A DNA stretch of 63,975 bases, counting the filler, from Candidatus Woesearchaeota archaeon (GTDB taxonomy: Archaea; Nanobdellota; Nanobdellia; Woesearchaeales; BM511): assembly GCA_023266675.1 (NCBI GenBank). It is 5 parts of 5 records of this genome, joined end to end, with 100 filler letters (N's around TTAATTAATTAA, not from the genome) between each part and the next. Parts side by side here need not be neighbours in the genome. Positions count along the whole stretch, not along the records: positions 1 to 30,852 come from JAHFPP010000007.1; 4 more parts are not named here. One strand, written 5' to 3'. This document shows positions 20,578-25,323 of this stretch, piece after piece; positions within the stretch are counted from its first letter, which is position 1; every line of letters starts with the position of its first letter. The notes beneath the pieces were generated by a model that was given only the letters and a program-made list of their open reading frames with translations, ran no database searches and was not told the DNA's origin. The translations under genes and the position numbers were made by a program.

Positions 20578-21024
20578 TTAATTCTTTGTTTTTACAATTA
20601 AATCAAACATTTCACTTTCAAGATAATATGCCCGCTGATTGTTCTCAAGCTGAATAAAAGAAAGCTGAATACCTTTTTTTATAATACTTTGAATCTGAGA
20701 TTTGATTGTATTATTTGACTTTGAAAGTTGTGATGCAAGATCTCCATAAGTGTATTTCTTGTTTTTTGAAACTGTAAAAATATGAAGTATTTCTTTTTCT
20801 GAGACTGTAAGATTTGACTTTGCATCCTCAACTTTCTTGATTAAATTGTTTTCTGATTTTCTTTCATTAAAAATTGATGCGTCAACAGGTTTTTGCTGTT
20901 CAATTAATTGAAGCCTTTTTTCAATATGAAGTATTTTTTCAGTTAATTCCTGATTTTCTTTTCTTATTTTTAGAAATGCCCGCCGTAAAAGTTCATCCCG
21001 GTTATTATCACTTTCAAACCCCAT
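20578..21024 (-). CDS. Coiled-coil plus winged-HTH DNA-binding protein
   Basis: LTVSEKEIL...TYGDLASQLSKSNNTIKSQIQSI HTH followed by a wing ending RAYYL. Confidence 0.75.
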   Translation of the reverse strand: MGFESDNNRDELLRRAFLKIRKENQELTEKILHIEKRLQLIEQQKPVDASIFNERKSENNLIKKVEDAKSNLTVSEKEILHIFTVSKNKKYTYGDLASQLSKSNNTIKSQIQSIIKKGIQLSFIQLENNQRAYYLESEMFDLIVKTKN

Positions 21025-21086: not shown

Positions 21087-21183
21087 GTCGTTTAAACGAT
21101 GAAGTTAGTCGTTTAAACGGCATTTTTTGTCGTCTATAAATTCTTAGTCGGTCGTTTAAACGGCAGTTTAAACGATTAAACGG
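21087..21183. repeat. Phased palindromic GTCGTTTAAACG repeats (iteron-like array)
   Basis: Copies at 21087, 21108, 21129 (degenerate) and 21151, plus partial copies at 21166 and 21176. Confidence 0.85.
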
Positions 21184-21319: not shown

Positions 21320-21380
21320 AGCTCAGCAGTTACTATCCGTTCATCATCCATATTCAGCTGGGGATAACTTCCTCATCGCT
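21320..21380 (-). ncRNA. Box C/D methylation guide sRNA 1
   Basis: Minus strand reads AGCG-ATGAGGA(C)-AGTTATCCCCAG-CTGA(D')-ATATGG-ATGATGA(C')-ACGGATAGTAACTG-CTGA(D)-GCT, with an AGC/GCT terminal stem and an oligo-T terminator. Confidence 0.85.
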
Positions 21381-21464
21381 TCAATCAGTATTAATTATAT
21401 AGAATATAAGTGTTTGTTTTTTAGTTATAAAAATAACAATTATGAATGGCAGTCTTGGAAGATT

Positions 21465-21540
21465 TGCACTCGCTCAGCAGTTACTTCCGTTTGTCACAGG
21501 CATGGCCTCGAATGGTGTTCACTTCTCTCATTGCAAGTCT
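21465..21540 (-). ncRNA. Box C/D methylation guide sRNA 2 (degenerate internal boxes)
   Basis: ATGAGAG (C), guide AAGTGAACACCAT, TCGA (D'), GTGACAA (C'-like), ACGGAAGTAACTG, CTGA (D). D guide nearly identical to sRNA 1. Confidence 0.65.
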
Positions 21541-21623
21541 TGCACTTCCTTAAATTAAGAATGATTTTTTAGTATATAAGCGTTTAGATATCAAAAGATA
21601 TTAATAGCTATAATATGAAAGAT

Positions 21624-22631
21624 TCAGATTATCTGAAAATCAACGCATATCCTGTATACTTTCGGAGCATGTTGTCCGCACTTTACAAGGGTTAGTATTT
21701 TATATTTCATATTATTTTTACTGCATGCTTTTTCTATCTTTTTATATGCCAAATCAAACTCTTTTTCGTTTAAGAAATCATAAAAATGAATTATTGTTCC
21801 TTTTTTTGATGCTGATAAAGCGGAATCTAAGAAATCCTCAGCAGATTTTGGAAGAGGCATGAGTATCCTGTCAAAATGTTTCTTTAACTTTGGAACTTCA
21901 ATTTTTACGTCCCCGTTTATTAAAGTGACATTTTTTATCTTATTCAATTTTATGTTTTCAAGCCCGTATTTATGCCCCTCTGGATTCATTTCTATACCTA
22001 TTATCGATTTTGCCTTCGTATTTTTTGACAAAACACATGGATAAGGCGCTGCTCCAGAGAACATCACAAGTATGTCCTCTTCGGATTTGACAAGTTCAGA
22101 TATTCTTTTTCTTTCAGTTGAAAGACGCGGTGAAAAATAAACTTTTTCAACATTAATTTTAAGCCGTACATTATTTTCTTTATGAATTGTTTCCTTCTTA
22201 TTTTCACCGGCAAGATAAATCATCTTTTGAGTTCGAAAATCACCTTCATGAACCCCTCCTTTCTTTAGAACAGTCTTTATGGTCTTGTTTGACTTTAGAA
22301 GTGCGTCGGCAATTAATTTTTCTTTTTTTTCAAGCTCCCTGTCAACTTCTATTATTGCTATGTCTCCTACATGATCATATGCTGTCTTTAAGGATTCTAT
22401 CTCTTCACTTGTAAGTTTTATTTTTAGAATATCAGCAAATGACTTTTTTTTCTCAGTCTTTTTGAATTTTTTTTCAAAAATACTGTATTCTGAGTCAAAC
22501 TTTTTCTTAATTGGAAGATATATGAACCCTTCTTCTTTTATAAGATCATAATCTGTGTCTAAATTATCTTTTTGCAAGAGCTCTCTTCTTGCTTTTTCAA
22601 CATCTTTCAAAGGAACTCTAAGTGCATGCAT
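21624..22631 (-). CDS. trm5: tRNA (guanine-37-N1)-methyltransferase, Trm5/Tyw2 family
   Basis: GDIAII, YFSPRLSTER, MFSGAAPY, RILMPLP. Confidence 0.85.
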   Translation of the reverse strand: MHALRVPLKDVEKARRELLQKDNLDTDYDLIKEEGFIYLPIKKKFDSEYSIFEKKFKKTEKKKSFADILKIKLTSEEIESLKTAYDHVGDIAIIEVDRELEKKEKLIADALLKSNKTIKTVLKKGGVHEGDFRTQKMIYLAGENKKETIHKENNVRLKINVEKVYFSPRLSTERKRISELVKSEEDILVMFSGAAPYPCVLSKNTKAKSIIGIEMNPEGHKYGLENIKLNKIKNVTLINGDVKIEVPKLKKHFDRILMPLPKSAEDFLDSALSASKKGTIIHFYDFLNEKEFDLAYKKIEKACSKNNMKYKILTLVKCGQHAPKVYRICVDFQII

Positions 22632-24711: not shown

Positions 24712-25323
24712 TTATGGTCTGGTCCACTTAATTTCGTAGTAAGTTACGTCTCCTTCTGAGTCTGCAATACCAATTAGAAGCCTTTTCTTAGTTGAGTGAG
24801 CAACCCTGTTTTTTGCCGCAAAATCGTACCAAGTCATTGCATCTGTTTCATTTACCGGGTAGAGTACCCATTTTGCATGGTCTTCACCAGGCTTAACTCC
24901 TCGGTCATATACTCTAAAATCAGCGCCGAATTTCAATGCAGTCTTAACTATATATCCTCGTTCTCGCATATCCTTAAAAACTTTGTATCGTGTAAAAAAG
25001 TTTTTTTCCTTTTTCTGGGCTTTTTTTAGAAATTCTTCAAGCGTAACTATCTTTTTTCCTGAATAAATCTTGATCTTTTCTTTTTCAAGTAGGTATAATG
25101 ATTCTATGAATGAAAGCTCAACTTTTTTTTGATGAATACCGCCAAATCTGCTTAATGCATATAGCTCTCTGGCTGGGTCTGAGTCTTCAGTCAATACCGT
25201 ATCATCATGAAGATGCGCTTTGACAAACGTTTTTTCTTTAGATTCTTTCTTTGGCTCTTTGATAATCTCAGATAATTTTACAGTTTCAATTGTTTGGACT
25301 TCTTTAGCTTTATCTTTTACCAT
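24712..25323 (-). CDS. endA: tRNA-splicing endonuclease
   Basis: ESLYL, GYIVKTALKFGADFRVY, HAKW, RVAHSTKK (catalytic Y/H/K). Confidence 0.95.
   Translation of the reverse strand: MVKDKAKEVQTIETVKLSEIIKEPKKESKEKTFVKAHLHDDTVLTEDSDPARELYALSRFGGIHQKKVELSFIESLYLLEKEKIKIYSGKKIVTLEEFLKKAQKKEKNFFTRYKVFKDMRERGYIVKTALKFGADFRVYDRGVKPGEDHAKWVLYPVNETDAMTWYDFAAKNRVAHSTKKRLLIGIADSEGDVTYYEIKWTRP

Follow-up and report, generated by a model that had tools for sequence, protein, structure and literature searches.

An expressed box C/D guide RNA with joined ends, predicted to direct methylation of U2552 and U2438 of 23S rRNA in the archaeal order Woesearchaeales

Introduction

The 2'-O-methylated A-loop uridine Um2552 belongs to a small set of rRNA modifications shared by all domains of life. 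In most other organisms this mark is made by RrmJ (RlmE, FtsJ), which yields the same product at the same nucleotide as the RNA described here but is a stand-alone Rossmann-fold enzyme that works without a guide RNA. The eukaryotic C/D counterpart at the U2552-equivalent position is yeast snR52, which guides Um2921; it is a snoRNA with other partners and another second target. Three routes to Um2552 are set out in the relevant passages of PMC12123411: a Rossmann-fold enzyme, a snoRNA-based system and the SPOUT enzyme RlmR. For archaea, the main text of Dennis et al. (2015; PMC4644070) lists the first A-loop nucleotide (E. coli U2552) among the predicted targets of C/D sRNAs for five of the seven species studied. 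The sRNAs compared in that main text share both the RNP and the target with the RNA reported here, which we call sRNA 2. They come mostly from hyperthermophiles with 26-128 sRNAs, whereas the host of sRNA 2 belongs to a small-genome groundwater DPANN lineage, and sRNA 2 is treated as one conserved double-guide family, traced across an order and set against RrmJ.

Circular C/D sRNAs have been described in two settings. In Euryarchaeota, the C/D box sRNA of the tRNA-Trp intron is excised at a bulge-helix-bulge (BHB) and circularised (work cited in PMC7994747 and PMC9014305). Both it and sRNA 2 are circular C/D guides located at a BHB, with release by the splicing endonuclease presumed for sRNA 2; as those articles present it, however, the former is a tRNA intron, whereas the BHB of sRNA 2 encloses a free-standing gene that lacks exons to be spliced together. 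In Pyrococcus and Thermococcus, circular C/D sRNAs are linked in passages of PMC9014305 and PMC7994747 to the ATP-dependent RNA ligase Rnl. These circles resemble sRNA 2 in being circular C/D RNAs joined near the terminal stem, and differ from it in that sRNA 2 has a BHB motif and comes from groundwater and freshwater samples. Set against the assignment of the Thermococcus circles to Rnl in PMC9014305, the BHB-flanked circle is the unusual part of the present case. BHB, circular form, box sRNA and endonuclease are covered jointly in sections of PMC7994747, PMC9014305 and a Nanoarchaeum paper (PMC3491384), and the way in which C/D sRNA circles form is called still unclear in the corresponding part of a review. 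Among the papers listed for fibrillarin, DPANN and box sRNA were not found together.

Here we describe sRNA 2 from Candidatus Woesearchaeota archaeon (GCA_023266675.1), whose assembly comprises 1.22 Mb at 34% G+C in 83 contigs and is 95.86% complete. The window is the whole stretch of DNA that was analysed (63,975 nucleotides), of which bases 1-30852 represent one contig. We regard it as highly probable that sRNA 2 is a genuine DPANN box C/D guide RNA, with RNA-guided methylation of U2552 and U2438 standing in for RrmJ/RlmE. Very likely it is an expressed, circular C/D guide for Um2552 and Um2438 that replaces RrmJ in this lineage, the methylation itself being predicted from the guides. The double-guide family (U2552 plus U2438) is new, and its kind, sRNA-guided Um2552, is already known from other archaea. 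How genome-reduced DPANN archaea make Um2552 bears on which parts of ribosome maturation they keep.

Results and discussion

Architecture of sRNA 2

The minus strand at 21468-21538 contains a complete box C/D sRNA of textbook shape. All sequence strings that an earlier note on this DNA had quoted for sRNA 2 are present, with correct coordinates, on the minus strand. The elements, together with two putative transcription signals, are as follows.

21533..21538, minus strand: 5' strand of the terminal stem, ACUUGC, pairing with GCGAGU at 21473-21468
21525..21531, minus strand: box C, AUGAGAG; conservation of the AUGA core is 90% or higher in the family, up to full invariance, and positions 5-7 vary
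21512..21524, minus strand: D' guide, AAGUGAACACCAU, 13 nt, preceding UCGA
21522-21514, minus strand: core of the D' guide, GUGAACACC, pairing with LSU G2550-C2558
21508..21511, minus strand: box D', UCGA, with GA retained, at the D' register of the family
21498..21507, minus strand: D'-C' linker, GGCCAUGCCU, 10 nt, with a small GGC/GCC hairpin as read from the sequence
21491..21497, minus strand: box C', GUGACAA, with the RUGA core retained; the alignment shows no variation at U and G, and at least 90% conservation of the flanking A's
21478..21490, minus strand: D guide, ACGGAAGUAACUG, 13 nt, of which AGUAACU pairs with LSU A2435-U2441
21474..21477, minus strand: box D, CUGA, identified from the sequence and the family alignment
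21473-21468, minus strand: 3' strand of the terminal stem, GCGAGU, forming a 6-bp stem with ACUUGC
21574..21585, minus strand: BRE/TATA promoter-like motif, AAACGCUUAUAU; the outer helix described below begins about 25 nt downstream of it
21425..21440, minus strand: T-rich tract, AUUGUUAUUUUUAUAA, proposed from sequence alone as a candidate archaeal terminator for sRNA 2

A single base separates the terminal stem from the R of box C, and the stem resumes directly after box D, as in a k-turn. The bulge A21532-A21531-U21530 shares A21531 and U21530 with box C, is followed by G21529-A21528, and leads into G.A and A.G pairs. The internal boxes have the form of a k-loop, with the degenerate D' UCGA keeping its GA and the C' GUGACAA keeping its UGA, both at the positions seen in the family. 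Most homologs also have a short hairpin in the linker, often capped by GAAA or UUCG. Both guide spacers of sRNA 2 measure 13 nt, compared with the approximately 12 nt expected for archaeal C/D sRNAs. No Rfam model matched sRNA 2 even at E<=10, and a scan of the window at gathering scores returned tRNA only. Because snoPyro_CD, sR1 and the like describe Pyrococcus and Sulfolobus RNAs and gave no match, sRNA 2 was not filed under them.

Upstream, the window contains just two exact copies of AAACRCTTATAT, at 21574-21585 and 21404-21415, one before sRNA 2 and one before the neighbouring sRNA 1. With one mismatch allowed there are four matches against 1.74 expected, a statistically weak excess given that 7 of 100 shuffles reach four. 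Judged by its position, the motif before sRNA 2 is a putative promoter, and the T-rich tract at 21425..21440 possibly ends the transcript.

A discrete transcript with joined ends

A discrete transcript, which the earlier note had named as decisive for its proposal, was found in three public runs from two studies, as one 106-letter contig per run. Two of these runs are groundwater metatranscriptomes, and the third comes from freshwater and is labelled metatranscriptomic WGS, its status as an RNA library being uncertain. The contigs cover window positions 21455-21546 and nothing else on a 501-base stretch. In run X1, cover over sRNA 2 was 64.5x versus 0 on the flanks, and these empty flanks argue against DNA carry-over. 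A further run, X4, gave no contig on the 501-base stretch, and sRNA 1 and the flanks were uncovered in all four runs, which does not prove that such transcripts are absent.

The first 30 letters of the contig equal its last 30, and a cyclic contig of a 76-nt circle reproduces the data exactly, including the loose ends, the three to four mismatches and the length of 76+30.

21471..21546, minus strand: 76-nt circular RNA, from three metatranscriptome contigs

A 7-nt repeat, AGUGCAA, allows the join to lie anywhere from 21546 joined to 21471 through 21539 joined to 21464. sRNA 2 is a discrete RNA with joined ends as read from assembled contigs, in which the 7-nt repeat at the join would also permit a reverse-transcriptase template switch, so that an artefact of this type is possible.

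The sequences around the ends of sRNA 2 fold into a BHB, whose elements are listed here.

21545..21549, minus strand: 5' strand of the outer helix, GGAAG, pairing with CUUCC at 21461-21457; also present in the free-energy fold of the precursor
21538..21544, minus strand: 5' strand of the central helix, UGCA (21544-21541), and 3-nt bulge AGA (21540-21538)
21457-21468, minus strand: 3' strand of the central helix, UGCA (21468-21465), bulge AAU (21464-21462) and outer helix CUUCC (21461-21457)

In this fold a 4-bp central helix (UGCA/UGCA) is bordered by 3-nt bulges on opposite strands and flanked by the helices GGAAG/CUUCC and CUUGC/GCGAG. The circle that it predicts is 76 nt, the same length as observed. 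The join, ...UGCAAG joined to ACUUGC, fits symmetric cuts placed before or after the first bulge base, the repeat hiding the exact place; the observed join lies one base 5' of what we take to be the canonical BHB cut positions. Among 48 homologs with 30-nt flanks, eight (one of them G134, a genome flagged as unpublished) carry BHB flanks, compared with 0.25 expected when the 3' flanks are swapped. The genome encodes two EndA paralogs and RtcB (559 bits), with one EndA at window positions 24712-25323, 3 kb away. EndA and RtcB would be the enzymes that make the circle. A BHB-flanked circle would give C/D sRNAs a further, defined way of being processed and extend such circles beyond thermophiles.

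Several details of these processing elements were recorded in addition. The EndA gene in the window (24712-25323, minus strand) matches TIGR00324 at 114 bits, and the second paralog lies on contig C81. The gene for tRNA-Val(GAC) of the same genome (G000, contig C49:8810-8909) has a 26-nt intron in a clean hBHBh' fold, for which cuts after bulge base 1, 2 or 3 all give a plausible 7-nt anticodon loop, so that this intron does not calibrate the canonical BHB cut positions. Homologs of sRNA 2 with the leader GAAGUGCAAC and the trailer UGCACAGAUUC form a BHB (L030, L039, L066, L117, L118 and others, in G042, G092, G131, G094 and G134), and their box D is mostly odd (GGUA, GGCA, GAUA or GUUA) instead of CUGA.

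The D' guide and the A-loop

LSU and SSU rRNA genes were searched for in the 83 contigs of the organism's own assembly and none was found; rRNA was read in relatives, and the numbering of U2552 and of 2435-2444 follows alignment to the E. coli 23S gene and landmarks. The H92 core GGUGUUCAC is present in all 21 LSU genes of relatives, including three of three from the organism's own family, and most relatives read GGGGGUGUUCACCC. The organism's own H92 presumably matches that of its kin. The earlier note had proposed that the D' guide is a complement of the A-loop with ten pairs; the complementarity stands, and its length has to be reduced to 9 bp because the relatives read GGGUGUUCAC rather than UGGUGUUCAC. 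Positions 3-11 of the guide form nine contiguous Watson-Crick pairs on kin H92, while positions 1-2 (AU) face GG without Watson-Crick pairing. Counting from UCGA, the +5 rule leads to U2552 as had been suggested: A21516 is the fifth base and meets the U before GUUC in the kin rRNA (21/21).

In the LSU and SSU of one same-family relative, the A-loop is the best duplex site of the D' guide, at -16.0 versus -12.6 kcal/mol for the runner-up. Taken by itself, the complementarity would be weak evidence, since 1310 of 20000 shuffled 13-mers (6.6%) obtain at least nine contiguous pairs somewhere in the LSU and SSU of one relative. That the A-loop pairing stands above chance follows from its rank as the best duplex site, from covariation at 6/6 pairs of the terminal stem and from the 9-mer being exact in 125 genomes. 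Where the sRNA and its cognate LSU could both be read (13 genomes), all 13 combinations form 8-11 contiguous pairs with position 5 on U2552, and in three of them the duplex has the 9-bp form found for sRNA 2.

The D guide and a second target in 23S rRNA

For the D guide, an imperfect pairing with AGUUAC near 2435-2441 had been raised as a possibility, and such a pairing was recovered: the guide pairs with AGUUACU as 7 bp, followed by a bulged A and 3 bp. Its best LSU site, AAGUUACU-CCGG, corresponds to E. coli 2435-2444 (-13.2 kcal/mol), and A21482, the fifth base upstream of box D, pairs with U2438 in kin rRNA. In other family members the D guide reads GGAGUAACU and pairs bulge-free. Copies from a sister order have the guide GUAGCU, matched by AGCUAC (AGCUACUCCGGGG) in both LSU genes found there (two of the five genomes gave an LSU match); this compensatory change on both sides supports 2435-2441 as the target of the D guide. 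Methylation of both U2552 and U2438 by sRNA 2 is predicted from guide position.

An alternative D guide site at the 5' end of SSU rRNA (9 bp, -10.8 kcal/mol) was rejected, as it relies on the guide half remote from the box and leaves position 5 outside. Within the organism's own genome, the perfect complement of the D guide occurs at the sRNA gene only, besides three one-mismatch matches of no evident meaning. The GUAACU guide is common to further sRNA types, L202 (G031) and L208 (G128): one combines it with the D' guide UCUUUACCCAU, and another has GUAACU in both guide positions.

Conservation across the order

A pattern of box C, core and D' gave 62 hits, distributed over 50 of the 201 genomes sampled from the order, compared with 15 hits for a reversed-pattern control. 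Thirty of 50 inspected loci show the whole double-guide architecture, and one more has its halves in swapped order. In the alignment of the 30 homologs, AUGA, GUGAACACC, the UG of C' and GUAA-U are invariant, and the terminal stem shows compensatory changes at 6/6 pairs. Built from this alignment, the covariance model R1 has hits at E<=1e-3 in 128 of the 150 genomes of the order that were searched with it; sRNA 2 itself, a member of the seed, scores 65.9 bits. When verification is defined as box C plus the A-loop guide (at most one change) plus the GUAAC guide, the sRNA is present in 122 of the 150 genomes; over all fetched loci the numbers are 130 genomes, 125 of them with the exact 9-mer. 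These order-wide counts include genome G134, flagged as unpublished. In a sample of the phylum, the sRNA was found in five genomes belonging to two families outside the order (sister orders). The conserved boxes and covarying guide that the earlier note had suggested looking for in relatives were both found, the former in 122/150 genomes and the latter as the compensatory change in the D guide of the sister order. R1 is a ready covariance model for annotating genomes of the order.

These data bear on the simplest objection, namely that an intergenic stretch merely resembles a C/D sRNA by chance. The frequency with which shuffled guides reach nine contiguous pairs in rRNA (6.6%) and the lack of an Rfam match would suit such a reading, but both guides are conserved order-wide, the stem covaries, and the RNA is discrete and abundant (64.5x in X1 versus 0 on the flanks). 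Stem covariation, R1 conservation and the discrete RNA refute chance resemblance, to which we assign a negligible probability.

At the D' register, NNGA is found in 106 of 125 genomes, with CUGA in 50 and UCGA in six; the remaining 19 of the 125 lack NNGA at this register, some having a hairpin only, and keep the A-loop antisense. The latter observation indicates that the antisense may be selected for something beyond methylation. It raises the possibility of a real C/D sRNP whose A-loop antisense acts mainly as a folding chaperone or tether of domain V, holding H92 and H74 while assembly proceeds; U2552 would then be methylated little or not at all, and the U2438 guide alone would be catalytic. 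The degenerate D' and C' of sRNA 2 would fit this proposal, as would the location of the two guide targets approximately 114 nt apart in one domain and the replacement of D'/C' by a plain hairpin in several of the 19 genomes with GUGAACACC exact. We nevertheless judge it improbable for three reasons. First, this copy retains GA in D' and UGA in C'. Second, the distance from core to D' is fixed, placing position 5 on U2552 in 106/125 genomes. Third, catalytic replacement predicts the near-exclusion of RrmJ described in the next section, which a chaperone role does not.

Some loci depart from the common layout. In L064 (G127:C33:9008-9334), which R1 missed, the two halves have changed places, so that ACGGAUGUAACUG-CUGA leads and the A-loop guide precedes the terminal CUGA. 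Such a layout would fit evolution through a circular form. A subgroup of nine loci (L168, L171, L183, L184, L186, L187, L189, L193 and L197) keeps GUGAACACC and the GUAACU guide and has no recognisable D'/C', with a GCC...GGC-type hairpin between the guides instead. In two genomes (L210 with L146 in G101:C14, and L214 with L152 in G040:C49) a full copy is preceded, about 140 nt upstream, by a truncated one that runs from box C through the A-loop guide, D' and C' into the beginning of the D guide.

Partner proteins and the distribution of RrmJ

The proteins of a C/D sRNP are encoded in the genome: fibrillarin (280.5 bits) adjoins Nop5 (180.6 bits) on contig C27, and L7Ae (94.4 bits) is on contig C12. 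The earlier note had asked whether rrmJ/ftsJ is absent, and no such gene was found in the 95.86%-complete assembly. The FtsJ model gave four matches there, all at or below 33 bits, which are Methyltransf_11, RsmB/F (two) and CMAS proteins. Across the order, strong FtsJ matches (E<=1e-15) occur in 13 of 201 genomes, including the unpublished G114. Three of these 13 were tested further, and in each the best match was rrmJ TIGR00438 at full length, with 173-184 bits, below the 300-bit cut-off.

RrmJ and the sRNA largely exclude each other across the order. Among the 150 genomes searched with both queries, the sRNA is present in 121 of 140 genomes without RrmJ versus one of ten with it (Fisher p 7e-7, a naive value that ignores relatedness). 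G086 is the one genome with both. Conversely, 19 of the 140 RrmJ-negative genomes have neither by the tests used; these 19 include G127, with its permuted copy, and G055, G071 and G128, whose variant copies failed the verification filter. In family f44 (e.g. G046, G161, G206), R1 matched none of 16 genomes, and the two f44 genomes in the FtsJ search (G046 and G161) gave no strong RrmJ match. This near-exclusive pattern over approximately 150 genomes represents a clean natural swap between guide RNA and enzyme for the same job.

A stand-alone enzyme might nonetheless have been missed, leaving the sRNA redundant or aimed elsewhere. The candidates would be an rrmJ in the part of the genome missing from the assembly (roughly 4%), or a small SpoU-like protein (contig C35) acting like Thermus RlmR. 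The genome does encode two SpoU-family proteins, one of the TrmJ family (199.5 bits, over the cut-off) and the other of 158 aa on C35, and a SPOUT route to Um2552 exists in Thermus according to the pertinent part of PMC12123411. The incompleteness of the assembly (95.86%, in 83 contigs) and the coexistence of RrmJ and sRNA in G086 point in the same direction. We consider a missed enzyme very unlikely, as RrmJ is missing in 188/201 sampled genomes of the order, which makes its absence the rule and not an assembly gap; moreover, the other SpoU protein is TrmJ-family and nothing links the small one to rRNA.

Proposed pathway

In the pathway that we favour, sRNA 2 would be transcribed from its own promoter, most likely excised by the tRNA-splicing endonuclease at the flanking BHB, and then joined as a 76-nt circle. 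L7Ae would bind the C/D k-turn and the C'/D' k-loop, with Nop5 and fibrillarin joining afterwards. Placement of the D' guide on the A-loop (H92) would allow fibrillarin to 2'-O-methylate U2552, and placement of the D guide on 2435-2441 would lead to methylation of U2438. The RNA-guided route may thus stand in for RrmJ/RlmE in this lineage. A broader version of this proposal holds that a stand-alone C/D gene has adopted the BHB signal of tRNA introns, is made circular by EndA and RtcB in mesophiles, and has replaced RrmJ across most of the order; we give this combined claim slightly less than an even chance.

The neighbouring sRNA 1 and its surroundings

A second sRNA gene, sRNA 1, lies downstream of sRNA 2.

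21320..21381, minus strand: sRNA 1, 90 nt downstream of sRNA 2, containing ACGGAUAGUAACUG

Its Rfam match to snoPyro_CD is sub-threshold (29.2 bits versus a gathering score of 45), and R1 gives it 35.4 bits. The D guides of the two sRNAs are of the same type and nearly identical, as had been observed previously. The D' guide of sRNA 1, AGUUAUCCCCAG, pairs with LSU GGGGAUAAC (2444-2452), with position 5 on G2446; in general form, the D' guide of this type, (A)GUUAU(C/U)CCC(A/G)G, complements LSU CCGGGGAUAAC (2442-2452), adjoining the site of the shared D guide. A second candidate site is GGGGGUAACU, at LSU ~1940 in G002 (-17.4 kcal/mol). Homologs of sRNA 1 occur in at least 12 other genomes, including the RrmJ-positive G099, which is without sRNA 2. 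Any duplication that produced the pair must therefore be old. The tandem duplication with a guide swap proposed in the earlier note can be retained at best as an ancient event; a recent local one does not agree with both types being conserved families in many genomes.

Between sRNA 1 and a 148-aa ORF (20578-21024, minus strand), three copies of GTCGTTTAAACG are found within 80 bp (window 21087-21164), each containing the palindrome CGTTTAAACG. Counting both strands, GTCGTTTAAACG has six matches compared with 0.11 expected, and the repeats could be binding sites of a regulator. On the other side, the gene upstream of the sRNAs (21624-22631, minus strand) has its best match to Trm5b, a tRNA m1G37 methyltransferase, at 273 bits, below the equivalog cut-off.
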